Assembly: GCA_037381445.1 (NCBI GenBank)
Contig: JARRQT010000070.1
Coordinates: 1 to 19,450 of the forward strand
Length of the DNA stretch: 19,450 bases
Direction: 5' to 3'
Source of the DNA: Calditrichia bacterium
Lineage (GTDB): Bacteria; Calditrichota; Calditrichia; RBG-13-44-9
Part shown: positions 412 through 16,869 of the stretch, in pieces
Layout of the letters: every line of letters starts with the position of its first letter
How positions within the stretch are numbered: the first letter of the stretch is position 1
Program-made: the position numbers and the translations under genes
The notes under the pieces: generated by a model
Told to the model about the DNA's origin: nothing
Database searches by the model: none
The model's input: only the letters and a program-made list of their open reading frames with translations

Positions 412-1446
412 TTATCTGCTCAGGATACTATTCCAAAATTCATTGACCTTATTGGCGTATAATTCCTTTTCAGCATTCGGAAGAAATGCTGATGAGACAG
501 CATTTAATGTCAGCTTTCTAAAATCCTGGTATTCAAATCCCAATTTTCTATGTATCAGCATGAACTCATCCGTAATTGTTGCACCAAACATGGACGGATC
601 ATCAGAATTGATGGTCACCAACACACCTTGATCATAGAATGCTGGAAATGGATGCAATACGCATGAAGGATAAATGCCGGTTTTAATGTTACTGGTAATG
701 CAGATCTCGAGTGGTATTTGTTGCCTGCGGATTTTTTCCAGCAAAAGCGGATTCTCCACTCCTCTTACTCCATGTCCTATTCGTTCAACCTTAAGAACAT
801 CCATGGCCTGTTGGACCGAGGATGGACCTGCTGCCTCCCCCGCATGGGCGGTCAAATGAAAACCACGATTCCTGGCCTCCTGGAAAACATCCTCAAATAA
901 TTCAGCGGGGAATTTTTGTTCGCTTCCTCCCAATCCGATTCCGATGAGACCATTACTCAAATATGGTGTTATCTGATCCAGGCGCTCAATGCCTGTTTCC
1001 GGTCCATGATCCCGAACAATATCGGCAATTAATCCGCAGCGGATTCCAAAATCTCTCTCCGCTCTGCGAACACCTGAAAGTGTTGCCTCGGTAATTTCCG
1101 CCGCCTGCAAATTATTATCTTCAAAGTCCCAGGGCGAGAAGAAAACTTCCGCATAGATAACATTTTGAGTATGCAGGTCTTCCAGGGTTCGATAGGCTGA
1201 TTCTTCAAAATCGACGGCTTCCCGGAAAAATCTATTCTTCCAGAACCAGGTTTCAATGAAATGGGGAAAATCGCGAAAAACAAATTTTTGCTTCAAATCC
1301 TCCACTGTGCTAACAGAGGGATCTCCACCATATTTACCTATCAAATTGAGCAGGAATTCAAAAGTAAAAGCTCCCTCCAGATGAAGATGAAGTTCAGCTT
1401 TTGGCATTATCCTGATGATTTGTTCCGCCGTCATAGTCTCTTTCAT
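412..1446 (-). CDS. add: adenosine deaminase
   Basis: 344 aa with PKAELHLHLEG metal motif, HAGE, RIGHG and NSDDP: a full set of adenosine/adenine deaminase motifs. Confidence 0.9.
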   Translation of the reverse strand: MKETMTAEQIIRIMPKAELHLHLEGAFTFEFLLNLIGKYGGDPSVSTVEDLKQKFVFRDFPHFIETWFWKNRFFREAVDFEESAYRTLEDLHTQNVIYAEVFFSPWDFEDNNLQAAEITEATLSGVRRAERDFGIRCGLIADIVRDHGPETGIERLDQITPYLSNGLIGIGLGGSEQKFPAELFEDVFQEARNRGFHLTAHAGEAAGPSSVQQAMDVLKVERIGHGVRGVENPLLLEKIRRQQIPLEICITSNIKTGIYPSCVLHPFPAFYDQGVLVTINSDDPSMFGATITDEFMLIHRKLGFEYQDFRKLTLNAVSSAFLPNAEKELYANKVNEFWNSILSR

Positions 1447-1452
1447 TATTTT

Positions 1453-2760
1453 TTACCTGAAAAGGATTGTCCCGTGCGTGAAGAAAAGGCCGGCAATACT
1501 TCCGGTTAACAGACATGCCAGGGTAGCGCCCAGTAATGCCCTGAAGCCCAGTCGGCTCAAATCGCGCAATCTCTCGGGGACGAGGGCGGAAAAGCCTCCC
1601 ACAAATATGGCCAGTGATGCGACGTGCGCAAAACCGGCGAGCACATAGGTAGTTATAACCACTGTGCGCGGCGACAATTGAACTCCGGAACTCAGCAGAG
1701 CAGCCAGATCCTGATAGGAAGCCACTTCAGTGACAATCAATCGCTCACCGATGATTCGGGCAATGTGGCCGGCGTCTTTTAAAGGGATCCCAATAATTAT
1801 GGTTAAAGGATAAAAAAGATAGCCCAGCAGGCCTTTTATCGTCCAGTCGATATGGATGCCCAATAAATGGTTCAGATTTGTTCCCGCGAGTACCAGAATT
1901 TTATCCGCCAGGGAGACTATTCCCAGGAATGCCAGCAGAAGCGCAACAATTCCCACTACCAGCTTAACACCTGAATTCGCCCCATTGATAATGGATTCAA
2001 ACAGGTTATTTTCCTTTTTATATTCGGGCTGAAGATGCTCCCCGAGCGTTTCCGGTTTCTCCGTCTCAGGATACAATATTTTGGAAATTACGATTGCAGC
2101 GGGCGCGTTCATAATTGATGCCGAAACCAGGTGCCCCGCGATGGTGGGGAAATTGTTCTTTAACAAAAGAACATATACCGCCAGCATGCTGGAAGCAATT
2201 GTGGCCATTCCCGCGGTTAAAACCGTGCATAGCTCAGAACGCGTCATATTTTTTAGATATGGTTTTATCACCAGGGATGATTCGACACCGACAAAAATAT
2301 TTGATGATGCTGCCAGCGATTCTGCCCCGCTGATCCGCATTAAACGGGTGAAGATGTAGGCAAAAAACCGGATTATTCTGTTCATTATTCCCAGATAGTA
2401 GAGCATGGCCATCAGGGAGGCGAAAAATATTATGGTCGGAAGTGCCTGAAAGGCCAGAATAAATCCGATAGAGTGTTCTCCGCCCGGTCCTGTCGCCCCA
2501 GGGCCCAACGCAAGCGGGCCAAACACAAACCTGATTCCCGCGGAGGCGCTGTCCAGAACCTGCAGGACTAGGTTGTTGACAAAAAGAAAAAACTTGGTTC
2601 CAAAGGGGATGATGAATACAAAAGTCGCAAAAATGGATTGAATAATTATTCCGGCGATAACAACCCGCCAACTGATCTGCTTCCTGTTTGTTGAAAACAG
2701 CCAGGCTATGGCCAATAAGCAGATAATCCCCGCAACACTAATAAGGTTTGAAAATCCCAT
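1453..2760 (-). CDS. nupC: CNT/NupC-family concentrative nucleoside transporter
   Basis: Highly hydrophobic; motifs FQALPTIIFFASL, SGAESL..SNIFVG.ES, SEL..VLTAGMATIA. Start moved to ATG 2760 (MGFSNL), which has GGAGG upstream. Confidence 0.9.
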   Translation of the reverse strand: MGFSNLISVAGIICLLAIAWLFSTNRKQISWRVVIAGIIIQSIFATFVFIIPFGTKFFLFVNNLVLQVLDSASAGIRFVFGPLALGPGATGPGGEHSIGFILAFQALPTIIFFASLMAMLYYLGIMNRIIRFFAYIFTRLMRISGAESLAASSNIFVGVESSLVIKPYLKNMTRSELCTVLTAGMATIASSMLAVYVLLLKNNFPTIAGHLVSASIMNAPAAIVISKILYPETEKPETLGEHLQPEYKKENNLFESIINGANSGVKLVVGIVALLLAFLGIVSLADKILVLAGTNLNHLLGIHIDWTIKGLLGYLFYPLTIIIGIPLKDAGHIARIIGERLIVTEVASYQDLAALLSSGVQLSPRTVVITTYVLAGFAHVASLAIFVGGFSALVPERLRDLSRLGFRALLGATLACLLTGSIAGLFFTHGTILFR

Positions 2761-2875
2761 AAAAAATAATTTCCTCCAGATTAACACATGACAGCGATAA
2801 CCAAGGTCATGATCAAAATTAAAGTGAACGCATTTACTCCTGCGATGCCGCTGTGTCTGTCAGGGCCTGCTGTAA

Positions 2876-3979
2876 TCAGCTGTCGATCTCTATGCGTTCG
2901 ACCTTCAATTTCTCACGAGTGACCAACTCATCAATTTCCGGCGGAACCCGGTAGACTGCCGGGGCCTGTTTTTCGGATGAGAGAAAATAATTAATGCACC
3001 CCAACTGCACGGAAAATGACATATCCATGATGTCTACCGGATGCCCCAATCCGCCGGCAATATTTATTATTCCGCCCCCGATTTCAAAATCAAAATGACC
3101 CGCATTTGACAGCATGGCGCCGCTGCGCATCTTCTGAATATGCGCGGTAGTGATGACGCCGCTGAGGCCCGTGGTGGTTATGAAGAAATCGCCTTCGCCC
3201 GCCGCCTTCATCATGGGCATGACGCGAAAACCGTCCATTCTGGCTTCTAGGGCTTTCCAGGGATCAATTTCAGTCACGATCACCTCGGCACCCATGCCAT
3301 GGGCCCTTGCTGCAACCCCGCGGCCAACCCATCCATAACCTGCCACCACGACGGTTTTTCCTGCTACGTTCAGATTGGTCAAATGGGTGATTGCCGTCCA
3401 TGTGGATTGCCCGGTGCCATAACGGTTATCAAAAAGGTGCTTGGATTTGGCGTCATTGACCGCAATTGCGGGATAGAGCAACTTGCCCGTTGACGCTAAT
3501 TCCTTCAATCGGTTGACGCCGGTGGTTGTTTCCTCGCATATTCCTTTTAAATTGACACCATACCGGGGATTTTCCTGCAAAAATTCGCATACATCCCCGC
3601 CGTCATCCACAATAACATCCATATTGTTTTCAACAATGGACTTGATAAATGAATGATATTCCTCAGGTGCCGCCGCGTGTTTGGCAAACACATGCACGCC
3701 CTGTTTTGCCAGGGCAGCGGCTATTTCATCTTTGGTCGACAGCGGATTGCTTCCCGTGATCCATACTTCAGCACCCAATTTTTGAATGGTTAGAGCCAGA
3801 TAAGCGGTTTTTGCCTCCAGATGAATGCATAGCGCCACTTTCTTATTTTTAAAATTGTTTTCGGATGAAAATTTTTTATAAAGACTGTTTAAAACCGGCA
3901 TCCAACCGGAAACCCATTCAATTTTTTGCTGGCCTTCTTCGGCGAGATTTATATCCCGCACCTGATAATCTTTGCTCAT
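2876..3979 (-). CDS. ahcY: adenosylhomocysteinase, archaeal/Thermotoga type, with an apparent in-frame internal deletion
   Basis: HLEAKT, SNPLST, DDGGD, EETTTG, VNDA.SKHLFDNRYGTGQS, GYGWVGRG, GHFD and GHP..MDMSF; AAGGAG RBS. Only 367 aa, and the segment normally found between GHFDxEI and xGRLVN is absent. Confidence 0.88.
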   Translation of the reverse strand: MSKDYQVRDINLAEEGQQKIEWVSGWMPVLNSLYKKFSSENNFKNKKVALCIHLEAKTAYLALTIQKLGAEVWITGSNPLSTKDEIAAALAKQGVHVFAKHAAAPEEYHSFIKSIVENNMDVIVDDGGDVCEFLQENPRYGVNLKGICEETTTGVNRLKELASTGKLLYPAIAVNDAKSKHLFDNRYGTGQSTWTAITHLTNLNVAGKTVVVAGYGWVGRGVAARAHGMGAEVIVTEIDPWKALEARMDGFRVMPMMKAAGEGDFFITTTGLSGVITTAHIQKMRSGAMLSNAGHFDFEIGGGIINIAGGLGHPVDIMDMSFSVQLGCINYFLSSEKQAPAVYRVPPEIDELVTREKLKVERIEIDS

Positions 3980-4017
3980 CTATTACTCCTTAAATTAAAT
4001 GCTGAAATTCAATCCGC

Positions 4018-4038
4018 GGAAAATGATTGGCATTTTCC
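4018..4038. other. stem-loop upstream of ahcY
   Basis: GGAAAATG-ATTGG-CATTTTCC, perfect 8-bp stem; function unknown. Confidence 0.4.
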
Positions 4039-4100
4039 TGTTTGCCTTCACCCGATGAACCTTGTCGGCTGTTGGAAACCTTACCCGAAAGATCGGCTTT

Positions 4101-6317
4101 TTATTTCAGAAACGAGCCATCGATTCCCAAAGTCACCCGAAATTCCCGGCCCGGGACAGGGGAGCCCTTGGATATCTGAATATCTTTATTTGCCAGGTTA
4201 TTAACTTCAAAACGCAGCAACCACCGAACGCCCATCACCCGGGGATTAATTCCCAGGTTAAGGTTTATTAAAGAATAGGGGTCCAGTTCTATGGTATTTG
4301 CAGCATCATGAAAGCGTTTCCCTACATAGTGATAGTATACGTTGAATGCTGCCATTCCATAATTAAATCCCAGACTGGCGTCATATTTGTGACGGGGCCG
4401 GTAAATCAGATAGTTGCCGGCAGTGGCTGGATCATCGCCATCGTCGGTGGATTTCATAAAAGTATAACCGATCTGAGCATTGAGAGCACCATTGAATCCA
4501 CTCCAGCTCATTTTCGATTCTACTCCCCTCGTAAATCCTTTCGCGACATTTTCAGGCATCCATTTCCCTGAAGGTCCCGGTGCCCAGAGGATGAGATTAT
4601 CCAGACGGCTCGCGAAATAGGTCTGTTCAATGCTCCAGTATCCAAGTCCTCCGAATTGTGCAATGTAGCCGCCGTCATAAGAAATTCCTTTTTCAGGTTT
4701 CAGATCCGGATTCCCTTTTGTCCAGGCATCTTCGGGCCAGTAGAGGTCATTATAGGTTGGTGCCCGGAAGACCCGCCCGATATTTCCGCGAATTGAACCA
4801 CGCCAGCCTGTCACCCGGCTCAGGGTGACGCCAATCTTGGGAGAGTACTGGCTGCCAACGCCTTCTTCGGGGTAGCGATCCAACCGGATGGCCGGTACGG
4901 CCAGAATCTTCCATGCATGGTCTATTCCATATTTCCAATCATCCTGCAGGAAAAAACTGTGAACATTGCGCTGGTGATCACCAATAAAAGGCTGCGACAC
5001 ACCGTTGATCCAGTAATTGGATTTCAACCGGTCCTGGCGGAATTCGTATCCGTAGGAGAATAAGCCCGCAGCATTCATATCGGTAAATACCTGTAGTGAG
5101 GCCCCCAGCGCCCTGTTTTTATAGTTGTTTTTCTCAAGCCCGAGGTACGATTCGGGATTGGTATAGCTCTGATCATTTTGCATCAGATATCCCTGCATCT
5201 GCAAGGCCACGGGTCCGAAGCACAGATCTTTATACGAAACGCTGGTATGGTTTCCGGTAATATTCAACCTGGCACTTGCGTTTGGGAAATCGATCGATCC
5301 GGGAGATCCCTGTTTTCCACTATGATACTGATGAAATACAGAAAGTCTGGACTGGTTGGGGAAAAGATAACCGCCTTTGACAAAAATGTCATCTGAGGTA
5401 TTATCCGCATTTACCATTTTCATGCGTTTATTCTGCAGATCATTAAAATATTCAAAATCGCCATTCGTCTGGGTGCGGTTATAGGAAACAAAATAATCCA
5501 GGTTACCAAGTCCCTGACCAACGGAAAAATCATGGATTTGCGTGTTGAATGATCCCATGGTGCTATGCCAGGAAGCATCCAATCCTTTGTCCCGCGCCTT
5601 GCTCTTGGTAATTATATTTATCACGCCCCCCACTGCATCGCTGCCATAAAGGGCAGAGTGCCCTCCTTTTACCACTTCTATTTTTTCCACTGCATCGAGA
5701 GGTATTTGACTCAGATCGACGGAACCGCTCTGGGCATCATTGAGCCGTTGTCCGTCCACCAGGACTAATACCTGTGAATCTGTTGAGCCCCGGAGTGAAA
5801 TGGTTTCGAGCGAACCGACCGGGCCATAACTCTTCACGAGAGCTCCGCCGATGGATTCCAGCGCCTGGCCGACATTTTGAGCATTTGTCTCTTGCAGTTC
5901 CTTTGCACCCAGAATTTCGGTCGCTACGGGAACGGAAGTCACCAGTTCCTGACTGCGCGTTGCAGTGACCACCACATTTCCCATATTAAGCGCGACCGGA
6001 TTAAGCTCGAAATTGAAGCTTAGATCTTCTCCGGCATGAATTGACAACTGTTTCTCAATTGTTTCATAACCCAGCATGTTCACCATCAGCATGTAGGCGC
6101 CGGGAGGAATGTTACTAATTGTAAACTCTCCGTGACTCCCGGCCGCAGTACCCATGTGGGTGTCTTTTAAATAAATATTTGTTCCGGTAAGCATTTCGCC
6201 CGAGGAAGCATCTTTTATTGTCCCTGAGATGGTACCCGAAGATGATTGGGCGACCAAAGAATAAGTAAAAATAAACATGAGGAAAAGAATCCAAATCTTC
6301 AAATCAGAAGTTTTCAT
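4101..6317 (-). CDS. TonB-dependent receptor (BtuB-like) with N-terminal carboxypeptidase-regulatory-like domain
   Basis: Signal peptide; GTISGTIKD..SGE.L.G domain; TonB box VVVTATR; plug motifs SLRG, VLVLVDGQRLN and IEVVKGGHSALYGSDAVGGVINIITK; barrel motif FRAPTYNDLYWP..GNPDLKPE. B12 specificity is inferred from context only. Confidence 0.9.
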   Translation of the reverse strand: MKTSDLKIWILFLMFIFTYSLVAQSSSGTISGTIKDASSGEMLTGTNIYLKDTHMGTAAGSHGEFTISNIPPGAYMLMVNMLGYETIEKQLSIHAGEDLSFNFELNPVALNMGNVVVTATRSQELVTSVPVATEILGAKELQETNAQNVGQALESIGGALVKSYGPVGSLETISLRGSTDSQVLVLVDGQRLNDAQSGSVDLSQIPLDAVEKIEVVKGGHSALYGSDAVGGVINIITKSKARDKGLDASWHSTMGSFNTQIHDFSVGQGLGNLDYFVSYNRTQTNGDFEYFNDLQNKRMKMVNADNTSDDIFVKGGYLFPNQSRLSVFHQYHSGKQGSPGSIDFPNASARLNITGNHTSVSYKDLCFGPVALQMQGYLMQNDQSYTNPESYLGLEKNNYKNRALGASLQVFTDMNAAGLFSYGYEFRQDRLKSNYWINGVSQPFIGDHQRNVHSFFLQDDWKYGIDHAWKILAVPAIRLDRYPEEGVGSQYSPKIGVTLSRVTGWRGSIRGNIGRVFRAPTYNDLYWPEDAWTKGNPDLKPEKGISYDGGYIAQFGGLGYWSIEQTYFASRLDNLILWAPGPSGKWMPENVAKGFTRGVESKMSWSGFNGALNAQIGYTFMKSTDDGDDPATAGNYLIYRPRHKYDASLGFNYGMAAFNVYYHYVGKRFHDAANTIELDPYSLINLNLGINPRVMGVRWLLRFEVNNLANKDIQISKGSPVPGREFRVTLGIDGSFLK

Positions 6318-6357
6318 CTCAAATTTTCCTCTTTCAATAGTTTTCGGTTAACGAGAA

Positions 6358-6394
6358 TTATCTGAGCCGGCAATTTAATTCCCGGCCCAGATAA
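6358..6394 (-). terminator. long hairpin between the two receptor genes (partial terminator or mRNA stabiliser)
   Basis: Minus strand reads TTATCTGGGCCGGGAATT-A-AATTGCCGGCTCAGATAA, with one G-U pair and one G-G mismatch, followed by TTCTCGTT. Confidence 0.55.
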
Positions 6395-6429
6395 ATGATT
6401 ATCCAATATTTTTTTCACAAGATTTTTAG

Positions 6430-8346
6430 TTATCGCAAATTCATTCCTACGGTCATTCGGATTTCCCTGCCCGGCATCGGATATCCATCGCTCAGGCGAT
6501 AGGATTTATCCGCCAGGTTGTTTAAATCCAGTCTGACCATCCACTTTAATCCGGCTGCCGAAAGATTGGTGCCGATATTTGCATTCCATAGTTCCAGACT
6601 CGGCAGATAAGCCGTATTGGCAGCATCCACATATCGTTTGCTGAGCCACTGGTAATTTACATTGAACTCAACCCTCATGTACTTCAAGCCCATATTGACA
6701 TCCATTTTGTTATGCGGCCGGTAGAAGAGCAATTTGCCATCGTTCAGGCCGCTGCTTGCATCACGGGCGTCCATATAGGTATGATTAACTTCTAGATTCA
6801 AAAATTCGCCAAACGGATGTATGCCAATATAAGATTCCAAGCCTGAGGTTACCGATTTGTCCACATTACTGGGGGTCCATTTATAATCAGAGGTACGCGG
6901 TGCCCAGATAATCTGATCCTGCATGTTATTCAGGAAGTAATTGAACCGCATCTGTGTATTGCGCAAAAACGGAACGTTGAAAGCCATACCCACATCGTAG
7001 TTCATTCCTTTTTCCGGTTTCAGATTTGGGTTGCCAACCGTATACCCATCATCTGGCCAGTAGAGGTCATTGAATGTCGGGGCGCGATATGATTTGCTGA
7101 CATGTGCACTAAAATTAACTCCATAGCTTCCCGAATTAGAAAGCATCAGGCTGAGTTTGGGGCTGAAGACTTTGTCAAAGTCAGAGGGAGCATCATAACG
7201 AACCGCCGGAATCACGGAGATTTTATCAAATACAAAGTCAAGCTTTTTTGTAGCAAGCGTCATTGCCGCATGAGCACTGTGGGTATCGCGTGATTTCTGA
7301 CCTAATTGGGTGCTGTTTGCCTTATCGTAACGATACACATAGCCATAGGTAAAGGAAAGGTTATCATTGACCAGAAGATTCTGGGTAGCATCGAATCCAA
7401 GGGCTTTGCTTTTCTGATCGCTTATATTGGGTCCGCCAAATGCGTACGGCTCTTCATATCCCGTGTTGAAATTGTGATAATAGGCGTGAGTACTTAAATC
7501 GGCATTGTGGAAAATTTCTTTTTGGTCGTAAGAAAGGTTGTAAATCTGGTTGTCCAGTTTCAAGGTAGCACCGGGAGTGGGATATCCGCCATAATTCAAC
7601 AAGCCGGGGACGCTGCCCGGGGAGCCACTTCTGGTCTGCGTAAATTGTGACGTAAAGAGGAGATTTCCGTTCTGGCTGACCTGATAGCCGAGGTTTGCCA
7701 TAAAATCATTGGATCTGCTGTAATTATCTTTTCTGGTACTTTCCGTTCCGTCCAGTTCCTGATACTTAAAATTTCCATCACTGCTGGTACGCTTATAGGA
7801 CACGTAGAAATTAAACTTATTAATCTGATTGGAAGCGTAAATATTATAGAATTGGGAGTTGAAGGAACCATAGGTGGAACGAATTCCCAGATTCATATTC
7901 GAACTCTCCGACCCTTTGCGGGTAATAAAGTTGATAACACCGCCAACCGCATCTGCCCCAAAACGGGCAGAATTACCTCCCCGCAGCACTTCCACTTTTT
8001 CAATGGCATCAATAGGGAGTGTCGTCACATCGAATTCACCGCTCTGGGCGCTGTTCATGCGCTGTCCGTCGATGAGAATGAGCACTTTATTGGAACTGGC
8101 ATCACGAATGTTGATCTGGCCGTCGCGAATAAAAACTCCAGGGACCGATTTCAACGCATCTGACATATCTTCCGCATTTGTTTTGTCAGAAAGCTCTTTC
8201 GAAGAGACCACTTCAACTGAAGCTGTCTTTTTGTAAGACTCATAATCAGTCTGATCTGCCTTCTTATCCTTGTCCTGCGCCCAGAGCAATCCGGTGAACA
8301 GCAGAGAAAAGACAAGCGCAAAAAAGATGTTTAATTTGTTTGACAT
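6430..8346 (-). CDS. TonB-dependent receptor (BtuB-like), paralog of 4101-6317, with no recognisable TonB box
   Basis: Signal peptide; AAGGAGG RBS; plug motifs LILIDGQRMN and VEVLRGGNSARFGADAVGGVINFITR; YRAPTFNDLYWP..GNPNLKPE. Confidence 0.88.
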   Translation of the reverse strand: MSNKLNIFFALVFSLLFTGLLWAQDKDKKADQTDYESYKKTASVEVVSSKELSDKTNAEDMSDALKSVPGVFIRDGQINIRDASSNKVLILIDGQRMNSAQSGEFDVTTLPIDAIEKVEVLRGGNSARFGADAVGGVINFITRKGSESSNMNLGIRSTYGSFNSQFYNIYASNQINKFNFYVSYKRTSSDGNFKYQELDGTESTRKDNYSRSNDFMANLGYQVSQNGNLLFTSQFTQTRSGSPGSVPGLLNYGGYPTPGATLKLDNQIYNLSYDQKEIFHNADLSTHAYYHNFNTGYEEPYAFGGPNISDQKSKALGFDATQNLLVNDNLSFTYGYVYRYDKANSTQLGQKSRDTHSAHAAMTLATKKLDFVFDKISVIPAVRYDAPSDFDKVFSPKLSLMLSNSGSYGVNFSAHVSKSYRAPTFNDLYWPDDGYTVGNPNLKPEKGMNYDVGMAFNVPFLRNTQMRFNYFLNNMQDQIIWAPRTSDYKWTPSNVDKSVTSGLESYIGIHPFGEFLNLEVNHTYMDARDASSGLNDGKLLFYRPHNKMDVNMGLKYMRVEFNVNYQWLSKRYVDAANTAYLPSLELWNANIGTNLSAAGLKWMVRLDLNNLADKSYRLSDGYPMPGREIRMTVGMNLR

Positions 8347-8544
8347 AATAATGCCTCCTTGGTTTAACTAATGCATTTTTAATAGATCAATATTCTGTTC
8401 ATGAGAGACTCATAAATAAATACTTGCTCTGCTAAATGCTTCAAAATCCCCCCTGCTTCCCTGGTATCGAAATAATACAGACTCTTTAAATTGGGATTTT
8501 CAGTTCCTCCTTGTTTTTGTTGATACTGTTTGAATTAAAATTTA

Positions 8545-10173
8545 TCATTCCGAATCTTTCCAGCTTGAGGGTCCGTCGGGAATTGTGATGGCAGGGTGCG
8601 CCTTAAATTTGTTCCATTCCTGGGCATGAACAGGATTCTGCCAAACAGGATTTTCCCAGTCACCATATGGAGGATAATCCACGTAAATAGCGTTTGTAAT
8701 GGCATACATGGGCCATTTCCCGAAAGCTTCCGCCACGATCCAACTGTCTTTCATTATTTTTAAAGGTACATCAGTTTTAAAAGTCAGGTCAGTCCCGGTT
8801 GCCAGCCTCTTCACAATTTGTCCATTTATTATTATCCGGAGGCCGTCGTCGGTTTTAAGTAATGGCTGATTTGCCAGTACTTCGCATTTCAATTTTAAAA
8901 TTCCGTCTTCGCCAACTTTGACAATCTCGCCGGGAGTTTTCTTGCCTGCTTTTATTAAGAGCAGCGGACCAAAACCGGAGGTCAAAAATGACTGCCCGTT
9001 TTTGAGGGATTTTTCCAGGTTTTGCTTATTCAGTTTTCTGCATTGTGTATAAGTCCGCGGATTGCCGATGGTAGTGGTCCAGTAAAATTTTCCTTTGGGA
9101 TATGCCTGTGTTCCGTAAATATCATGACCATCCGAGCCGGCAAGAGCAGGCATGCGGTTCCCGGCATTAAGATATTCGAACCAGGCCTGGACTGCCCAGG
9201 TATTTATATTAATTTTCGAGCTGTCCCAGGTTGAGGTCGTGAGCGAATGCGGCGGATCACCATTCCAGACTTCAATGGCATCAAAATCTTTCACTAGGCC
9301 CCATGATTTGAAACGGCCAGCCCAGTCCCAGCTTTGAAAGGGGTGATTAATAGTAATAATTCCACCCTGCCCATGCGTCGCATCGATCATTCTCTGAACG
9401 TCCTCCTGACCGTCAAAAACAGCCCTTGCCCAGATATTTGCATCGTCCGGATGTGTCCCATTCAAGGCGGTAATGAAGGTCTGGTTCATATGCCCATAGC
9501 CGTTTTCGGCTGCTTTATCCGAAGCCTCGGTTGAGATCTCATTTCCCAGAATGGGAAGAAAATGACCGGATTTTGTGGAATGCCATTCCTCGCCGCCCGA
9601 GATTGAATTGTGGTCGGTCAGAATACCCCAGGAGAGGCCGACTGCCTGCATTGCCTTTGCAAGCGCCGAAGGATATTGGTATCCGTCGCTGTGCAGGGTG
9701 TGGGAATGAGGATCGCCGCCGTACCATCCGAGTTTTTTGAGATTATATAGCTGTTTCAGCCTGACATTATATTGCAGCCCGTCAAATTGATTCCTGCCAA
9801 TAACGAATACTTTATGAATCAGCTCCCATTCGGGACCGTGGGTAATAATCAGCAGAAGGGTATCAGCCGGCACTTCCACATCATAGAATCCGTTTTCATT
9901 GGAATAGGTCATCGCAATCAGGTTATCGGTACGTCCAGTTGATTTCTGGGGACCGAAGGCCGGAACGACGTCCGTGATCGGTTCGTACCAAACCTGGACC
10001 TGTGCCACAAGAGGATGTCCCTGACCATCCAAAATTCTTCCATGGATCGTCTGCCGGGACGATTTGGGGATATTTACCGCAGCATCAGCAAAGGATATTA
10101 TTCCGCTGAAAGAAACTGCGAGTAAGGCGAACAATATCAGGTATGCAGATTTTTTAAGTATTGACTTTTTCAT
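8545..10173 (-). CDS. exported PHP-domain metallohydrolase (CehA/McbA-like)
   Basis: Sec-type signal peptide ending ADA; N-terminal beta domain; PHP motifs GDPHSHTLHSDG, LTDHN, GNEIST, GHMN, NHP, IEVWNG and GSDGH. Confidence 0.8.
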   Translation of the reverse strand: MKKSILKKSAYLILFALLAVSFSGIISFADAAVNIPKSSRQTIHGRILDGQGHPLVAQVQVWYEPITDVVPAFGPQKSTGRTDNLIAMTYSNENGFYDVEVPADTLLLIITHGPEWELIHKVFVIGRNQFDGLQYNVRLKQLYNLKKLGWYGGDPHSHTLHSDGYQYPSALAKAMQAVGLSWGILTDHNSISGGEEWHSTKSGHFLPILGNEISTEASDKAAENGYGHMNQTFITALNGTHPDDANIWARAVFDGQEDVQRMIDATHGQGGIITINHPFQSWDWAGRFKSWGLVKDFDAIEVWNGDPPHSLTTSTWDSSKININTWAVQAWFEYLNAGNRMPALAGSDGHDIYGTQAYPKGKFYWTTTIGNPRTYTQCRKLNKQNLEKSLKNGQSFLTSGFGPLLLIKAGKKTPGEIVKVGEDGILKLKCEVLANQPLLKTDDGLRIIINGQIVKRLATGTDLTFKTDVPLKIMKDSWIVAEAFGKWPMYAITNAIYVDYPPYGDWENPVWQNPVHAQEWNKFKAHPAITIPDGPSSWKDSE

Positions 10174-10204
10174 AGTTAGATTAATCCAGAATTTATTCCT
10201 GTGA

Positions 10205-11239
10205 TTATTTTAAAATTTCCATCCCGGCAAGCACGCGTTCCGCCAGGCGGGAAACGTGATCGTTAAGGTGAAGGTTGTTGATCGCCTCAATTTTCTCCAG
10301 GAATTCCAGGGGGAAATTGCCTGCTCCACTATACGCACCGGCAATTCCGCCGGCAATCGCCCCGACAGTATCGCAATCACCGCCCATATTTGTGGCCGCC
10401 TCAATTGTTCGAACCGGATCGCCGCCGTAATAGACAACCAGCGCCAATGCGGTTGGAACGGCTTCTGTAATTGCCACGCCGGCTCCGATATAATTGTATA
10501 AATCCTGCCAGATTGTTTCTTCTCTTTTGCCGCTGCGAGCAATATCCAATGCCCATTCGGTTCTGTGTGTCAGGGAAGCGCCGAACCATTTTTTATCATA
10601 TGCCATGCCTTCTTTGATTCCATAGAAGAAGGCCTCTATCAATTCGTCAAGCGAGGCGCCTGCCATTCCGGCTGAAACCGCGCACGCCACCGCCGAGGCT
10701 CCTGCGATCGCAATATTTGTGTTGTGGGTCGGAACGCACACTTCAATTACATCTTTTAATGTTCTCTGCAGGTTGCCGGGATTAATGACACCGATGGGAG
10801 CGATTCTCATGGCGGCCCCGTTCGTGTCGCCAAGATATCCCGCTTCATCCACCGGGACTCCCTCACGAATCATTTTTAATGCCCTGAGCGAGCTGGGACC
10901 AAGAATTAGCGAGTCGAAGGCGTTCAGGCTTTCTCCCCATTCGATCAACTTGCGGGCCACACCATCTCTGCTGATTCGTCCCTCTTCCAGGAAAAGCTTT
11001 ACCAAAATCATGGCCTGCTGAGTGTCATCTGTTATCTGCCCGGCTACCATCCCGTTGTGTATGACATGACCCTCGGGAGCGGGTAAAAAGGATGTGATTC
11101 TTTCAGGAAAAATATTTCTGATTTCATCCGGGCTCAACATAGATGTTGGCATTCCCATTGCGTCTCCGCAAGCGACACCCAAAAGGCATCCCAGCGCATG
11201 TTCTTTATACTTTTCAATATCCAGATTCTGCAACTTCAT
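10205..11239 (-). CDS. ADP-ribosylglycohydrolase family protein, YegU-like
   Basis: GDAMGMP, TDDT, LGPSS, TNGAAMR, PTH and GGDCDT. Start moved to ATG 11239, which has a GGAG RBS and follows the ecfT stop by 1 nt. Confidence 0.88.
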   Translation of the reverse strand: MKLQNLDIEKYKEHALGCLLGVACGDAMGMPTSMLSPDEIRNIFPERITSFLPAPEGHVIHNGMVAGQITDDTQQAMILVKLFLEEGRISRDGVARKLIEWGESLNAFDSLILGPSSLRALKMIREGVPVDEAGYLGDTNGAAMRIAPIGVINPGNLQRTLKDVIEVCVPTHNTNIAIAGASAVACAVSAGMAGASLDELIEAFFYGIKEGMAYDKKWFGASLTHRTEWALDIARSGKREETIWQDLYNYIGAGVAITEAVPTALALVVYYGGDPVRTIEAATNMGGDCDTVGAIAGGIAGAYSGAGNFPLEFLEKIEAINNLHLNDHVSRLAERVLAGMEILK

Positions 11240-11240
11240 T

Positions 11241-12047
11241 TTATAAAACTCCATAGTTTAGTGTTTTTGCCCAAATCGCAATTGCCAAAATCACGACTTC
11301 GAATACTATCATCCAATAATCTTTTTTATTCATCTTAATTTCAACCAGATCGGTTGTGGTGTCCATGGCTCCAAAACCTCTGTTCAGCATGGATATTGCG
11401 AGGTTGTCTGACATACGTATTGAATCTACAATTACAGGGATCAGCACCGGAATAAAAGAGCGGATCCGCTTTATCATCCCACCGGAGTTAAACTCATGGC
11501 CGCGCGCTCTCTGAGCATCCATAACCATCCTTGTTTTCTTCTCCATAGTTGGTATAAAACGAATGCCGGTGGCGATAACAAATGCCAGTTGATGCGGGAG
11601 CCTCATTTTCTTTAAAAACTGCAAAATATCTTCGATGGGGGTCGTGTAGGTGATGACTGTTGACAATAGAACCATAATCAGAATCCGAAGGAGAAGCGTA
11701 ATCCCATAAAAGAAACCGCCGGACGTGAATTCAATTTTATTTGAGAATAGCTTAAACCAAACATGGTGCATGGTGGGCGATTTAAAATTGGAGGTGGAAT
11801 AGGAAAAACCCGTGAGCACTATCATGATAAGGAAGATAGGAAGCAGCGGCTTTATTAATTTGATAACATTATCCATTGGCGTTTTGGAACTCCATAAGAG
11901 AAGCAGGCAAAAGACCACCAGCAATGAATTGATAAGCGGAGAGGTAAACATGAAAGCAGTTGCAGTAATAACAATGAAACCCAGTAATTTTGTTCTCACA
12001 TCCAGCTTATGAAGAAGAGTCATGCCGGGAAAATATTCAATAAACAC
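11241..12047 (-). CDS. ecfT: ECF transporter transmembrane T component
   Basis: LHKLDVRTKL N-terminus, RFIP, and the two conserved Arg motifs AQRARG and MLNRGF; GTG start with AAGGAG. Confidence 0.9.
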   Translation of the reverse strand: MFIEYFPGMTLLHKLDVRTKLLGFIVITATAFMFTSPLINSLLVVFCLLLLWSSKTPMDNVIKLIKPLLPIFLIMIVLTGFSYSTSNFKSPTMHHVWFKLFSNKIEFTSGGFFYGITLLLRILIMVLLSTVITYTTPIEDILQFLKKMRLPHQLAFVIATGIRFIPTMEKKTRMVMDAQRARGHEFNSGGMIKRIRSFIPVLIPVIVDSIRMSDNLAISMLNRGFGAMDTTTDLVEIKMNKKDYWMIVFEVVILAIAIWAKTLNYGVL

Positions 12048-12056
12048 TTGGGCTCC

Positions 12057-13808
12057 TTAATTGGCAATCTTGCTAAAGTATTGAACGATTTCATAAATAG
12101 TCACAATTCCCCCGGGCATTCCATAGGGCTGTAGCTGATGGGCCAACACAGCGCTCAGGGGAGGGGAGACAGAACATGCTTTCAATTTATCTATTTGACT
12201 GAAGACCCGGGAAGGAATACCGTCCAGTTCAATTTGCCCATTTGAAAAGACTATTACCCGATCCGCATATTCCGCTGCGATTCTCATATCGTGGGTAATT
12301 ATGAGAATGGTATGTTGCTTCTGATGAAGCTGGCGGATCATTTTCATCATCTGCTGGGTGCCTGACCAATCCTGTCCGGTGGTCGGCTCATCAATCACAA
12401 GAATTTGGGGTTCCATCGCCAGAACCGTCGCCACGGCCAGTTTCTGCCGTTCGCCTTTTCCCAGCGTGAATGGATGTCTTTTTTCAAAACCCGTCAGACC
12501 GACAAACTCTATGGCGTCTGCAACTCTTTTCCTTTTCTCTTCCTCAGAAATATTGTAGGAGCGAAGACCATACTCGATTTCTTCCCGGACCGAAGAGCTG
12601 AATATCTGGTGGTCAGGATTCTGAAAGACATAACCCACCGATTTACTCAATTCTCCGATAGACAAACCCGCAATGTTTTTTCCGTATATTTTAATTTCAC
12701 CCGAGGTTGGCCGGAGCAATCCATTGAGATGTTTGGAAAAAGTTGTTTTGCCGGCGCCATTTTTTCCTATCAGTGCGACGAATTCGCCTTCATAAATTTC
12801 CAGGTTTAATCCCTTCAGCGCCGGGTGCTTTTTTCCATAGGAATAATGCAGCGAAGAGATTTCGATGACCGGCTTTCTGTCTTGTTTCAAAGGACTTTTT
12901 GGTTCTTCCTGATCGACCGGCGTTTTGGCTTTTAGTATCTCGGAAAGTCTCCGCCGGGCATCATCAAGGGTCAGCGGGATGTCTTCCTTTTTAAAAATTC
13001 CAATTTTCGACAGCTCATGTCCGATTTCGGCGATTTCCGGCGGCCGGATGCCTAATTTTTTTGTAAGCGGTATATCTTTGAATAACCTGTCAGGCGCACC
13101 TTGCCAGGCAATCCCGCCATTGTTCAGAACAATCAATTTTCGCACGAATTGAAGGATCTCTTCGCTGTCGTGGGCAGATACCAATACGGTGACATTCCGG
13201 GTTTGTTTTAATTCCGCCAGTAATTTGAATATTCCCAGCCGTCCTTCCGGGTCAAGCTCGGAAGTCGGCTCATCCAGCACCAATATCTCCGGCTGCATGG
13301 CCAGAACGCCGGCAATTGCCAGCCGCTGTTTTTCTCCGCCGGACAGTTCGGCGGTTAAGCGCTTTTCGTAGCCGGCCAGACCAACTGACTTCAGGGTATC
13401 GGAAATGCTTTTCTGTATTTTTTCTTTGTCATATTTTAGATTTGAAGGTCCAAAGGCAACATCTTTTTCGACAGTGATTCCAAATATCTGCGTTTCGGGA
13501 TCCTGGAGCACCAGTCCGATAAAACTGGATAGCGTCTGAATCCGGTACCGTTTGGTATCCATGCTATTGGCAATCACATTCCCTTCCAGGTTGCCTTCCA
13601 GAAAATGCGGAATCAGACCATTTGTCAACATCAGGGAAGTGGTTTTTCCGGCGCCTGTCGGCCCCATCAGACCTACAATATCACCTTTTTCGATAAAAAA
13701 GTGTAAGCTTGTTAGGGTGTCAGCTTGACTTTGGGGATAGTTGTATTTCTCCACATCAAATAATACAGTTCCTCTTTCAAAGCTGGTTTTTACTTCTTTG
13801 CTTGCCAT
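12057..13808 (-). CDS. ECF transporter fused double ATPase (EcfA-A')
   Basis: Two ABC domains: GPTGAGKT, QDPETQ, LSGGEKQR, LDEPT and GKNGAGKT, QNPDHQ, LGKGERQK, IDEPT. Confidence 0.92.
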   Translation of the reverse strand: MASKEVKTSFERGTVLFDVEKYNYPQSQADTLTSLHFFIEKGDIVGLMGPTGAGKTTSLMLTNGLIPHFLEGNLEGNVIANSMDTKRYRIQTLSSFIGLVLQDPETQIFGITVEKDVAFGPSNLKYDKEKIQKSISDTLKSVGLAGYEKRLTAELSGGEKQRLAIAGVLAMQPEILVLDEPTSELDPEGRLGIFKLLAELKQTRNVTVLVSAHDSEEILQFVRKLIVLNNGGIAWQGAPDRLFKDIPLTKKLGIRPPEIAEIGHELSKIGIFKKEDIPLTLDDARRRLSEILKAKTPVDQEEPKSPLKQDRKPVIEISSLHYSYGKKHPALKGLNLEIYEGEFVALIGKNGAGKTTFSKHLNGLLRPTSGEIKIYGKNIAGLSIGELSKSVGYVFQNPDHQIFSSSVREEIEYGLRSYNISEEEKRKRVADAIEFVGLTGFEKRHPFTLGKGERQKLAVATVLAMEPQILVIDEPTTGQDWSGTQQMMKMIRQLHQKQHTILIITHDMRIAAEYADRVIVFSNGQIELDGIPSRVFSQIDKLKACSVSPPLSAVLAHQLQPYGMPGGIVTIYEIVQYFSKIAN

Positions 13809-14605
13809 AAACTTCCAATATTTTTAACAGGTTGCTGAATTGCCTGCCTGACCAGGTCTATTTTTTCTGCGGGCAGGGAGACGAGAAAGCAGGTAGATGG
13901 GCCCGCCGATTTTTTCAGATCGACTGCCGGAGGATCCTCGATGCGCGAACTCAAACCGGCACTTTGGGCCAGTTGATCCAGTTCATATCCAATTCCCTTC
14001 GAACCGACCGGCAGGATGTCATGAATGCCTTCTATCGATCTTACCGTTTTCACTGCCTTTAAATCGGCTATCTCGGGATCAGCATAATGTATCTTATCCG
14101 TCATTCCTGATTTGGGTATTCCCACGCAAATAACCGTATCGCCTGGCAGGGAACTTCCGGGCCGAAAATCATTTTTTGAAACCAGTCCGATTGCCACAAC
14201 TCCCATACCGGTCTGAATGGTTGGTATATTGTCTTCGGTGCTTCCGGTGACCACTGCGCTGCCGTCCAGCCCCGCCTCGGCGACCTCTTCCCGAACGCCT
14301 CGAATTATGTCCCTGCCGGTAGGCTCCATTTCCACCGCCAGCACATCCACGATAAAAAGCGGCAGGGCGCCGGAGGCCAGCATTTCCAGCATCGGAACAC
14401 GAACGGCCAGACGTCCCAGTTCATAGCCGCTGATCCGCACGTTGTCAGAGGGCTTTGGTCCTATGCCTCCATCCGAATCGCTGGCAACCACCAGCATCAG
14501 ATTGTTGTCCAATTCTGTGATTAACAGATCCCGGACCGGCCTGACTTTAAAAGCCGGACTATTTTTATTGTTCTTAAACTGGTTATAGAGCGTTATTAAA
14601 TCCAT
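13790..14605 (-). CDS. cblS: alpha-ribazole kinase-like protein (PurM/AIR-synthase-related fold)
   Basis: VRDL, SDS.GGIG.K..D, RV..LEMLASGA, EMEPTG, GSTEDN..IQT, LPVGSKGI.YE and KSAGP, as I recall them from Firmicute CblS. ATG 14605 follows the cblT stop by 1 nt. Confidence 0.78.
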   Translation of the reverse strand: MDLITLYNQFKNNKNSPAFKVRPVRDLLITELDNNLMLVVASDSDGGIGPKPSDNVRISGYELGRLAVRVPMLEMLASGALPLFIVDVLAVEMEPTGRDIIRGVREEVAEAGLDGSAVVTGSTEDNIPTIQTGMGVVAIGLVSKNDFRPGSSLPGDTVICVGIPKSGMTDKIHYADPEIADLKAVKTVRSIEGIHDILPVGSKGIGYELDQLAQSAGLSSRIEDPPAVDLKKSAGPSTCFLVSLPAEKIDLVRQAIQQPVKNIGSLWQAKK

Positions 14606-14606
14606 A

Positions 14607-15146
14607 TTAATTCTGTTCAATCAGCGTGCTTCTTTTTACAATCAGGAAGGCGACTACCGCCACTCCGACATTTATCATCGAACCCACTGTTAGGGGGAGA
14701 ATAAGCGCAGCCATCAATCCTATTCCTCCGATGGGAATTACCAGCAGGGATGAGACGGGACCATTGAGCAGGACAGCCACGGCAATCCCAATCCATAAAT
14801 GAATCTTTCGGGAAATCCAGTAAAATAGCGAAACCCAGACTGCCATTTGCACGGCAATGAAAAGATGCATTGGCAAACCAAGCGGAAAACCGGTGGTGAG
14901 TGCGGTAAGCAGATGGCCCAGTGCGGCAACGATGCTGCCCTCCCGCCAGCCGAAGGTTATTGCCGCAAAGTAGGCGAAGGCAGCATCCAGCGCCACTGTG
15001 CCGGTGGGACTTGGGACTTTTATCATTGCCCCTACCGCGCTCAGGGCAATAAAAATTGCCATCCTGGCAACTCTTTTGGGTTCCCAGAATATCTTGCTTT
15101 CCCCGATATTCAACTCTTCTTTCGGTATGGGTAAATCTGCGGGCAC
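14607..15146 (-). CDS. cblT: ECF S component, alpha-ribazole transporter-like
   Basis: 179 aa with about six hydrophobic segments; GAMIK..GTVALDAA, GHLLTALTTGFPLGLPMH and NGP.S. Directly upstream of the cblS-like gene. Confidence 0.78.
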   Translation of the reverse strand: MPADLPIPKEELNIGESKIFWEPKRVARMAIFIALSAVGAMIKVPSPTGTVALDAAFAYFAAITFGWREGSIVAALGHLLTALTTGFPLGLPMHLFIAVQMAVWVSLFYWISRKIHLWIGIAVAVLLNGPVSSLLVIPIGGIGLMAALILPLTVGSMINVGVAVVAFLIVKRSTLIEQN

Positions 15147-15157
15147 TGCTTGCTTTC

Positions 15158-15925
15158 CTAACTTGTCCGTTTGTAACTGTTGAGTTTAATGGCCATCCTC
15201 TCTCCAATCTCACTGTAAAACTGGCATCTTTCCCCAGGCATATAAGACCTAACCAATTCGATCATTGTTCCGCGGTCAGAAAAAGTTTTGCGGGAGAGGA
15301 TAAAAATAGCCGAATTCTTGCCGACCTTCAGAAGCTCGGCTTCATACTTTCCTGCAATCGCACACTCCAAAGTCTCATCCACGTGGCTGAGGTTAATACC
15401 AAACTCTTTTTCAAGTATGTCAAAAAGAGAACTGTTTTCGAGATCATAGTCCAGAAGGGTCGGAAAGAGCTTCTTTGGTAAATAAGAGGTTTGCAGGGCA
15501 ATGGGCTCCATGTTTACTTCACGTACTCTTTGAATCCGGAATAATGCTTCATTCTGAGCAATCTTGAAATATCTAGTCAGTTCACTCGAAGCAGTAACGA
15601 CTTCAGCGGATATCACGCGTGTCTTTACTTCCATGTCTGTTTGCGATAAACCTGCGGAAAAGCTAAGTTTTTCGGTTAAACCATGAAAGACTTTCTTTTT
15701 CGCAACAAAAGTGCCCTTGCCCTGCAACCTATATAAAATACCTTCATTTACGAGACTGGCGATTGCCTGTTTTGCCGTATTTCTGCTGACCTGATGGGTT
15801 CTTGACAATTCGTTTTCGGATGGCACCTGCTGGGAAGGCAAAAATTCACCCAGTTCGATCTTTTCCAGCAGAAGCTCCTTTAATTGATAGTAGAGCGGCA
15901 AAACACTGGTCTTATCAATTCCCAT
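15158..15925 (-). CDS. GntR-family transcription regulator, HutC/UTRA subfamily
   Basis: PLYYQL, PSENEL, VSRNT, GKGTFV winged HTH followed by a UTRA-type domain (R.R...EPI....SYLP, SLF..LE). Confidence 0.92.
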   Translation of the reverse strand: MGIDKTSVLPLYYQLKELLLEKIELGEFLPSQQVPSENELSRTHQVSRNTAKQAIASLVNEGILYRLQGKGTFVAKKKVFHGLTEKLSFSAGLSQTDMEVKTRVISAEVVTASSELTRYFKIAQNEALFRIQRVREVNMEPIALQTSYLPKKLFPTLLDYDLENSSLFDILEKEFGINLSHVDETLECAIAGKYEAELLKVGKNSAIFILSRKTFSDRGTMIELVRSYMPGERCQFYSEIGERMAIKLNSYKRTS

Positions 15926-15943
15926 AACCTACTCCATATATCT

Positions 15944-15955
15944 TATTATATAACA
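15944..15955. promoter_or_regulatory. candidate GntR/HutC operator overlapping a TATAAT
   Basis: Minus strand TGTTATATAATA is one mismatch from the palindrome TGTTATATAACA and lies 18 nt upstream of the regulator ATG. Confidence 0.4.
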
Positions 15956-15959
15956 CTTT

Positions 15960-16869
15960 TTAATTTGTTAATCCGCATAATTCATAAGGCGTATTCCAGG
16001 GCATAACAGATGAAAAAACGTCTTTCATCTCCTCCGGAACAACCTTCATTTTCAGCAGCGCCTTGTTTCCCCTGGCATGAATTGTCTTCCCGATCAGATC
16101 CGCTGCAACAGGAATTTTAGGTCCTGCCTGTTTTGTTTTGGCTGAGTCGATGTACCACACCCTGCCGTTTTTAATTGCATTCACTTTATCGGCATTGGGG
16201 CGCGAAGCGATTTCATAGGGAGTCGTTGTGCCGTTTCCGCGTTCCGGACCTTCAAAATACGGGCCGCCCGCATGATCCCATAACGGGAGCATTATCACAT
16301 CTGGATTTACCTGAACCACTTCCTCCCACGTGACGGCAGGCGCTATTCCGGGACGTTTCGAGAAAATAGGATCTCCGCCAACCATTTTTATGAGCTCGGT
16401 AATGTATGAATCATTTCCCGGGACGCATTTATAGAAGTAATTAATTTCATAATATACTTTGACCCGGGGCATATTGGCATATTTTTGTTTTACCTGCTCC
16501 AGACGGGTTTGAATGAAATTTACCAGGCTGTCTGCCCGGTTGGACGTGCCAATAACCTGGCCCAACTCTTTTATTTTGGAATACACCTCTTCCAAACTGC
16601 TTTCATCCATGTGCACAATGGTTATGTTTTTGTTTTTCGATCACAGTAAGATCACCATTTTTAACCATCTTGGGGACCGTATCGGGGAAAATGCAATAGC
16701 GGGTTACGCCCACCAGGTCATTCAAGGCACCCAGTTCGGCAACGATATTCGTCCAGTTAGGGGCCAGCGACACTATCCTGGGGCCTGCAAAGGCATTGAA
16801 AGAAAAAAATAACGTCAGGATAATGGAAATCAGAAGGTGTTTTCGGTGGGTCAGGTTTAAAGATTTCAT
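15960..16869 (-). pseudogene. BtuF/TroA-like (cobalamin or Fe-siderophore) periplasmic binding protein, split by a frameshifting deletion
   Basis: 5' part: signal peptide, RIVSLAP, LVGVTRYC.FP. 3' part in another frame: KNITIVHMDESSLEEVY, GNDSYITELI..VGG, WEEVVQVNPDVI, AIKNGRV, GP. Junction at 16638; the first PDL-type loop is missing. Confidence 0.75.

Follow-up and report, generated by a model that had tools for sequence, protein, structure and literature searches.

A thirteen-gene operon of a Calditrichia bacterium with a predicted role in cobamide capture and breakdown of the lower-ligand riboside

The stretch of DNA analysed here (the window: 19,450 nucleotides, positions 1 to 19,450 of contig JARRQT010000070.1, assembly GCA_037381445.1, from a Calditrichia bacterium) carries an operon of 13 genes that may encode a route for the breakdown of cobamides at their lower ligand. 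In the list of open reading frames (ORFs) all 13 are minus-strand genes, and together they span 412 to 16869. Read from 16869 towards 412 they encode a periplasmic binding protein, a UTRA-domain regulator, the S component of an energy-coupling factor (ECF) transporter, a kinase, the ECF ATPase and T component, an ADP-ribosylglycohydrolase (ARH), an exported metallohydrolase, two TonB-dependent receptors, AhcY, NupC and Add (Table 1). The reading we favour, with a probability of roughly 0.55, is that a cobamide is captured, its nucleotide loop is cut in the periplasm, and the freed alpha-riboside is imported, phosphorylated and hydrolysed.

The substrates and reactions of this scheme are predicted from protein families and gene context. 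The two BtuB-like receptors and the BtuF-like binder would bring the cobamide to the periplasm, where the exported metallohydrolase would cut the phosphodiester of the nucleotide loop. Import of the alpha-riboside would then fall to the CblT-like ECF transporter and its phosphorylation to the CblS-like kinase; from the phosphorylated riboside the YegU-type hydrolase would release the base and ribose 5-phosphate. As the operon has no BtuCD permease, the corrin ring would be left outside; no such permease was found in the window or in the mapped loci of diderm bacteria. In a likely side branch NupC, Add and an inosine-type AhcY would import a 5'-substituted adenosine, deaminate it and free inosine. 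Repression by the UTRA protein likely acts at 16926-16941 and is likely lifted by an intermediate of the pathway. That the loop can be cut off is shown by CbiR, which hydrolyses adenosylcobalamin to cobinamide-phosphate and alpha-ribazole (PMC7733943).

The gene set is conserved in other genomes. A profile was built from 28 kinase homologues, and the best 80 of 134 genome loci were taken, many of them truncated. The kinase is paired with an ARH in 68 of the 80; the regulator is present in 61, the S component in 43, the receptors in 42-43, the binder in 28, ahcY in 24, nupC in 12 and add in 10. When 17 loci were extended, eight Ignavibacteria-type genomes proved to have all 13 genes in the same unbroken order, and in a ninth genome that order is interrupted. 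The possibility raised in an earlier note on this DNA, that these genes are conserved together nowhere, is thus contradicted by the kinase-ARH pairs and by the eight complete relatives. Other carriers are labelled Marinimicrobia, Calditrichaceae, Lentisphaeria, Thermoanaerobaculia and Bacillota. The Bacillota versions are reduced to regulator, S component, kinase, ECF and ARH, and this core module is present in cultured Bacillus and Brevibacillus species (L040, L055, L068, L070). The best 80 of 204 metagenome loci, which share some sequences with the genome set, show the same pattern (ARH in 57 of 80). In the host phylum the kinase is patchy and occurs in 5 of 86 genomes.

Two pairs of proteins replace each other in these loci. 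Among the 80 genome loci the exported PHP protein is found in 10 and an exported calcineurin-like phosphoesterase (PF00149) in 25, never both, and the S component is found in 41 and a membrane protein with ten transmembrane helices (10-TM) in 5, again never both. The metagenome loci give the same exclusions: 16, 22 and 0 for PHP protein, calcineurin-like protein and both, and 41, 9 and 0 for S component, 10-TM protein and both. From these exclusions we infer fixed roles in the operon: a single exported activity that cuts a phosphoester, and a single step dedicated to import. A sequence search of the PDB at E up to 0.1 returned nothing for the calcineurin-like protein, and neither Pfam nor NCBIfam gave a match for the 10-TM protein, which may be DMT-like, judging from size and hydropathy.

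Several loci depart from the common layout. In L173 (5503-7455) and L181 (5563-7471) a PfkB-like kinase and a second ARH lie divergently just upstream, across the operator. In L019 a 593-residue ARH ORF runs into a PHP fragment and ecfA is split, through either decay or assembly error. L051 and L059 have the kinase and ARH between genes for a large outer-membrane receptor, TPR and FG-GAP proteins, and both genomes have cobS, and in L038 (Bacillota) a binder, a FecCD protein and an ATPase follow the ARH.

Judged by their sequences, the kinase and the S component are homologues of CblS and CblT, with which they share motifs. The kinase is 37% identical to the pMF1298-5 gene, named cblS in PMC6722938, and 29% identical to the Listeria gene preceding cobU (query coverage 84-93%), and the S component is 31% identical (154 residues) to the S gene that adjoins cblS/cobS in pMF1298-5 and 49% identical (77 residues) to that of a Cytobacillus cob cluster. 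A midpoint-rooted tree unites the operon kinases in a clade of 41 members (support 0.64), whose sister group is made up of the Listeria and Lactiplantibacillus proteins; four members have no ARH nearby. A kinase homologue was found in 176 of 251 genomes of a Bacillaceae-type family, where all but that of an operon carrier score at most 142 bits, whereas the operon kinases score 286-444 bits. All 29 Bacillaceae-type cblS loci fetched adjoin cobU-like and adenosyltransferase genes. By these comparisons the operon kinase and S component form a separate subfamily of CblS and CblT. The PDB search with the kinase returned no CblS structure, only weak PurM and SelD matches. PMC6461909 treats CblS as a salvage enzyme and counts it in 363 species, mostly Firmicutes. 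Members of the operon kinase subfamily are also found in Atribacteria and an actinomycete, where they follow nucleoside-type ABC permease genes and no ARH is close by (L078, L079 and L073, kinase at about 4723, 10001 and 2950); L078 and L079 have a Bmp binder.

The ARH is 36% identical to E. coli YegU, and its best structure match is MJ1187. Six of 95 plasmid-collection records with relatives were opened, and in each the ARH adjoins either a PfkB kinase (four) or a phosphotransferase system (PTS) permease (two). Since all six sit beside a phosphorylating partner, this suggests that the family hydrolyses glycosides after phosphorylation. In L134 (3072-5981) and L246 (1076-3981) a YegU-type ARH stands right behind a beta-glucoside PTS permease without a kinase, a layout that suggests a phospho-glycosidase role. 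No functional study of YegU was found in the literature searched beyond PMC10819704, according to which the yeg genes are without demonstrated function.

The exported PHP protein matches the CehA/McbA model NF038032 at 182 bits (cut-off 80); this is its sole family match, with none in Pfam, and the ESM Atlas returned only unnamed or CehA/McbA clusters. Export is suggested by an N-terminal hydrophobic stretch. The structural model is confident (predicted local distance difference test score 93), its top folds are the PHP phosphoesterases 3E38, 2ANU and RNase AM, and metal-type His/Asp/Glu residues of the barrel are invariant in 43 sequences. We predict a phosphodiesterase, with the swap for a calcineurin-like phosphoesterase as an indirect pointer.

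The capture proteins group with cobalamin-related families. The best NCBIfam model for both receptors, which are only about 33% identical to each other, is the B12 model TIGR01779. PDB matches of the long form include E. coli BtuB and Bacteroides BtuB1-3. Relatives of the long form were also found in genomes without the kinase. Of eight such stand-alone loci, three are immediately preceded by a cobalamin riboswitch, and in one the order is riboswitch, receptor, propeller, binder, ATPase. When 69 receptors were placed in a tree, both operon forms fell in one clade (0.98) that encloses two riboswitch-headed receptors, and two further riboswitch-headed receptors are its successive outgroups. The other receptors of the host lie outside the clade, except for one paralogue that is 62% identical to the long form. 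A full-length relative of the binder matched 4M7O first (1.7e-27), BtuF structures at 1e-21 to 8e-14 and heme binders at 4.8e-11 or weaker. Furthermore, 17 of the 80 loci add a beta-propeller lipoprotein matching 8BMX, 8BMZ and 8P98, which are BtuG structures (PMC13616437), and relatives of this propeller come after riboswitch-headed receptors in L130 and L131. Taken from sequence relationships, this supports, without proving, a corrinoid as ligand of the capture proteins. Clustering with siderophore or thiamine transporters, which the earlier note had named as a possible objection, was not what the tree and the ranking of BtuF above heme binders gave, and uptake of siderophores or heme is disfavoured by the riboswitch context, the receptor tree and the PDB ranking.

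The host itself uses B12: MetH-like and B12-binding proteins and two matches to methylmalonyl-CoA mutase were found. No clear BtuC was detected in its genome, where the only FecCD match is weak (2.7e-10). The host's sole cobalamin riboswitch (G000:C34:19290-19476, L001) lies about 400 bases from a contig end, and the genes under its control are not assembled next to it, so that the host's own btu genes may be unassembled. The survey of the host proposed in the earlier note found no cobS, cobU or cbiZ, nor any cobT, at 91.85% completeness. CobS was found in 4 and CobT in 1 of 50 carrier genomes, which were drawn from 66 loci with kinase and ARH and are mostly assemblies of unstated completeness and mutually related. 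With these counts the kinase product has no known biosynthetic use. An alpha-riboside kinase, a hydrolase following it and the lack of CobS together point to breakdown, and ordinary CblT/CblS salvage was rejected, given the host without CobS and only four carriers with it. The catabolic reading of the earlier note is thus partly supported, by the conservation of its genes, by the grouping of receptors and binder and by the absence of cobS from the host and 46 of the 50 carriers, while its enzymatic steps stand as predictions.

The operon is not preceded by a cobalamin riboswitch, either in the window or in seven related loci scanned whole, and 35 of the 50 carrier genomes have one elsewhere. 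The window holds no structured RNA at gathering score; two matches at chance level appeared at E up to 5. A palindrome at 16926-16941, 56 bases upstream of the first gene, is likely the operator of the UTRA regulator. It emerged in one of nine runs of a Gibbs search of 49 upstream regions, with a score of 9.4 compared with 5.7-5.8 for shuffles. One site occurs in the window, against 0.01 expected by chance, and two in the host genome. The site is present in 24 of the 80 genome loci, and in most of these it lies where the first gene has its 5' end. As these loci also supplied the pattern, its support is the position, not the count. Plain counting of palindromes found no operator, and the promoter and terminator scan of the window was at chance level (34 against 28.8, and 20 against 19.1). 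In two of the 50 carriers a riboswitch-headed gene directly adjoins the operon, for a receptor in L045 (7468-7648) and for a binder in G098 (C9:1608-1807).

AhcY, Add and NupC are all second copies in the host genome. The best structure match of AhcY is the Thermotoga enzyme, and the window protein reads HLEAKT where the other copy of the host reads HVTAET (HxExK versus HxTxE). The HxExK motif, tied to a preference for S-inosylhomocysteine (SIH) in PMC10978960, is found in the window AhcY and in 119 of its 120 closest homologues. An otherwise variable loop has Lys in all 114 homologues scored (6 of the 120 were not scored). The Thermotoga and housekeeping enzymes have Gln at this position, a contrast between two reference sequences, and the replacement of Gln by Lys hints at a substrate beyond plain SIH; the available text of the review PMC7765604 does not name the differing residue. 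The best structure match of Add is 3OU8/3PAN, which we take to be an adenine deaminase, and its motifs are mixed, with Trp motifs specific to the family. The natural order of the two reactions is deamination by Add followed by cleavage by AhcY. The upper ligand of coenzyme B12 is one possible source of this branch's substrate; co-scavenged S-adenosylhomocysteine (SAH) or methylthioadenosine (MTA) is another. The proposal of the earlier note that NupC, Add and AhcY handle adenosine-derived parts leaves unexplained why a homocysteine-type hydrolase, inosine-preferring and with an altered loop, has been retained.

A number of observations weigh against the breakdown of cobamides through the lower-ligand riboside, in addition to the relatedness and mostly unstated completeness of the carrier genomes. 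Every B12-specific model scores far below its cut-off (198 and 164 bits for the receptors with TIGR01779, cut-off 600), and the ligand is therefore judged from context. Neither the top structure match of the long receptor, 9GBC, nor that of the binder is labelled as B12, and the BtuG matches are weak (8e-6 to 3e-3) and rank behind an archaeal surface-layer propeller (9e-18). The 62% paralogue of the long receptor (G000:C9:6541-8964, L120) has no riboswitch and follows genes for large secreted carbohydrate-enzyme-like proteins; it is possibly a receptor with a changed ligand, or a stranded copy. The specificity of the kinase may have changed, because its subfamily scores apart from the Bacillaceae-type homologues and tree support is only 0.64. 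CehA and McbA, after which the model matched by the PHP protein is named, are carbamate hydrolases. Two of the six ARH relatives pair with a beta-glucoside PTS, so that the family is not riboside-specific. The main loose end is the adenosyl branch, in which an SIH-type AhcY has no clear substrate in a model confined to the lower ligand. Finally, B12 is picomolar in the ocean (PMC9296465), and a purpose as carbon source is therefore doubtful outside corrinoid-rich sediments.

A further reading, which we regard as rather unlikely, is that the whole coenzyme B12 is dismantled in the periplasm, both nucleosides are harvested and the corrin is discarded. The lower alpha-riboside would then pass through the CblT/CblS/ARH branch. 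The upper adenosyl group would be released in the form of a thioether or of 4',5'-anhydroadenosine and handled by NupC, Add and an AhcY of new specificity; SAH hydrolases are known to hydrate 4',5'-anhydroadenosine. We hold it to be just as unlikely that the same chemistry acts on an alpha-riboside that is not derived from cobamides, with repurposed B12 parts. One example is ribosyl-adenosine from poly(ADP-ribose) or ADP-ribosylated necromass, which would be dephosphorylated outside, imported, phosphorylated and split by ARH into ribose 5-phosphate and adenosine, the latter then being deaminated; another candidate is the alpha-riboside of methanopterin. ARH3-type cleavage of alpha ribose-ribose bonds is established. 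A single such molecule would feed both ARH and Add, and some loci have a single inner-membrane importer (L037 has no nupC, and L060 only the 10-TM protein). The separate subfamily of kinase and S component and the lack of an operon riboswitch also fit, but joint repurposing is less parsimonious, since five proteins of cobamide families (three for capture, the S component and the kinase) would be involved, and AhcY is likewise left unexplained.

Less probable again is that the operon scavenges the nucleoside-bearing cofactors of lysed cells in general, with two cytoplasmic branches under one regulator, one receptor taking cobamides or their ribosides and the other S-adenosylmethionine (SAM), SAH or MTA. 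This reading would account for two receptors as dissimilar as these, for NupC, Add and the HxExK AhcY as a recognisable route from SAH through SIH to inosine as in Thermotoga (PMC10978960), for Bacillota versions that keep only regulator, ECF, kinase and ARH, and for the second PfkB-ARH pair of L173 and L181. However, both receptors belong to one BtuB-related clade, and the Lys in the AhcY loop hints at something other than plain SIH. Improbable, and the least favoured of these alternatives, is that the operon serves the cell's own need for B12, through CobS-independent import or remodelling or through an ECF module that carries the corrinoid. The host does have B12-using proteins without a clear BtuC, and riboswitch-headed genes adjoin the operon in L045 and G098; yet the operon has no riboswitch of its own although most carriers have one elsewhere, the btu genes of the host may simply be missing from the assembly, a hydrolase beside the kinase would destroy the substrate of CobS, and neither CobS nor CobT is present to rebuild the loop.

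Table 1. Genes of the operon and candidate operator, with positions in the window
Feature	Position	Strand	Basis and remarks
BtuF-like periplasmic binding protein	15960..16869	-	PF01497 (Peripla_BP_2); one gene, ~98-base assembly gap
GntR/HutC-type regulator with UTRA domain	15158..15925	-	PF07702 + PF00392
CblT-like ECF S component	14607..15146	-	PF12822
CblS-like kinase, PurM/AIRS fold, distinct subfamily	13790..14620	-	AIRS domain; predicted alpha-riboside 5'-kinase
Fused ECF A-A' ATPase	12057..13808	-	TIGR04520 + TIGR04521 above cut-off
ECF T component	11241..12047	-	PF02361
ADP-ribosylglycohydrolase (ARH), YegU type	10205..11254	-	PF03747; predicted 5-phospho-riboside hydrolase
Exported PHP-fold metallohydrolase	8545..10173	-	NF038032; predicted phosphodiesterase
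TonB-dependent receptor, short form, BtuB-like clade	6430..8346	-	best model TIGR01779; tree
TonB-dependent receptor, long form, BtuB-like clade	4101..6317	-	best model TIGR01779; PDB matches, tree
Second-copy AhcY, HxExK (inosine-preferring) motif	2876..3979	-	NF004005 above cut-off; 102 bases missing (assembly gap)
NupC-type concentrative nucleoside transporter	1453..2787	-	PF01773, PF07670, PF07662; likely start ATG at 2760
Adenosine/adenine deaminase family protein (Add), second genome copy	412..1446	-	TIGR01430, 304 bits, above cut-off
Palindromic site GGTTGTACCATCAACC	16926..16941	.	candidate operator of UTRA regulator; Gibbs motif search

The description of the locus in the earlier note, 13 co-directional genes of which several overlap or lie 1 nt apart, was confirmed. 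With the longest starts arh overlaps ecfT, ecfA overlaps the kinase gene and the kinase gene overlaps that of the S component; the last spacing becomes 1 nt if the kinase begins at the ATG at 14605. The family labels of the earlier note are borne out by Pfam and NCBIfam matches, and no cobS, cobU, cbiZ, cobC or btuCD was matched among the 18 window proteins scanned. For NupC the three Pfam domains of concentrative nucleoside transporters are above cut-off and TIGR00804 is below it.

In this assembly the binder appears as two ORFs (16603-16869 and 15960-16616) and AhcY as 367 residues. Contigs of runs X1, X2 and X3 are longer at both places, by 98-99 letters at 16636-16638 and by 102 letters at 3078/3079; the latter would bring AhcY to the 401 residues of its relatives. 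X1 possibly comes from the window's own source sample, X2 and X3 are from one sample of a second study, and X4 barely covers the stretch; the two runs with substantial matches are from salt marsh and sediment. Since contigs of three runs fill the breaks, both genes are most likely intact and the breaks are gaps in this assembly, and decay into pseudogenes was rejected. A third discrepancy lies at 16963-17073: for the 109 letters of this assembly the contigs of X2 and X3 carry 157 different ones, and a joint is seen in X1 as well. Beyond the operator, upstream of the operon, the sequence is unreliable. It includes an isolated 132-residue piece of the AAA domain of a sigma-54 activator (17414-17812), which may be a remnant or a mis-join, and many unrelated contigs end near 17465-17500. 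Further upstream on the same strand (18335-19137) lie a DUF4440 (SnoaL-like) gene and a 107-residue gene without family match, neither of which was seen as a cluster in related loci.

In the literature found, cobamide biology consists of synthesis, uptake, salvage and remodelling; no described gene pathway consuming the cobamide nucleotide loop for catabolism was found in the searches, which covered open papers without their supplements. A dedicated route in Ignavibacteria and in genomes labelled Marinimicrobia, Calditrichota and Bacillota would name a sink for a community-limiting vitamin, and could turn complete cobamides into cobinamide for neighbours. If both nucleosides of coenzyme B12 are harvested, the cobamide cycle would have a biological sink in these sediment bacteria, dedicated to the destruction of B12, and YegU-type hydrolases would make up a class of phospho-riboside hydrolases. 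Whatever the substrate, the operon gives a testable function, hydrolysis after phosphorylation, to YegU-type ADP-ribosylglycohydrolases, as well as one to a CblS subfamily in Gram-negatives without CobS and to two unrelated exported hydrolase families. It is testable now, because cultured Bacillus and Brevibacillus carry the core module.

Among known systems, CblT/CblS salvage in Listeria, Bacillaceae and lactobacilli has homologous S components and PurM-fold kinases, adjacent and in the same order, with a role in alpha-ribazole salvage that is summarised in PMC6461909. There the genes stand beside cobS, cobU, cobC or adenosyltransferase genes and feed cobamide synthesis, whereas the operon described here has its own ECF module, a hydrolase and a UTRA regulator, belongs to a separate subfamily and occurs in hosts without cobS. 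The E. coli yegTUV-yegW genes, and modules of GntR regulator, transporter, PfkB kinase (or PTS) and ARH, share its four-part logic. In the operon, however, the kinase is CblS-like (AIRS/PurM fold) and not a PfkB protein, the importer is CblT-ECF, and outer-membrane capture, an exported hydrolase and the adenosyl branch are added. To the BtuB-BtuG-BtuFCD system of Bacteroides thetaiotaomicron the operon is similar in its receptors, which are BtuB-like by clade though far below the cut-off of the B12 model, in its BtuF-like binder, and in the BtuG-like lipoprotein of 17 of the 80 relatives; unlike that system, the operon has no BtuCD or riboswitch, and enzymes follow instead.

Remodelling by CbiR or CbiZ resembles the predicted first step, the removal of the nucleotide loop (PMC7733943). 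CbiR, an enzyme of AP-endonuclease-2 fold, is encoded next to biosynthesis genes and works towards rebuilding, whereas the operon has an exported PHP or calcineurin-like hydrolase and no rebuilding machinery. Neither CbiZ nor the AP-endonuclease-2 family was matched among the window proteins; CbiR was not searched genome-wide. The ribose utilisation systems of Bacteroidetes, which scavenge bound ribose, similarly combine TonB uptake, a kinase, a permease and variable enzymes including ADP-ribosylglycohydrolases (10.1101/574913), but are built on SusC/SusD, ribokinases and the sugar permease RusT, none of which was matched among the window genes. The route from SAH through SIH to inosine in Thermotoga and Methanocaldococcus shares a deaminase and an HxExK hydrolase (PMC10978960); here the deaminase is of the Add family, and the hydrolase, which is tied to an importer, is the second copy in the genome and differs in a residue of the loop. 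All parts of the operon come from known families. Its novelty is that of the pathway, and rests on the operon failing a defining feature of each of these known systems.

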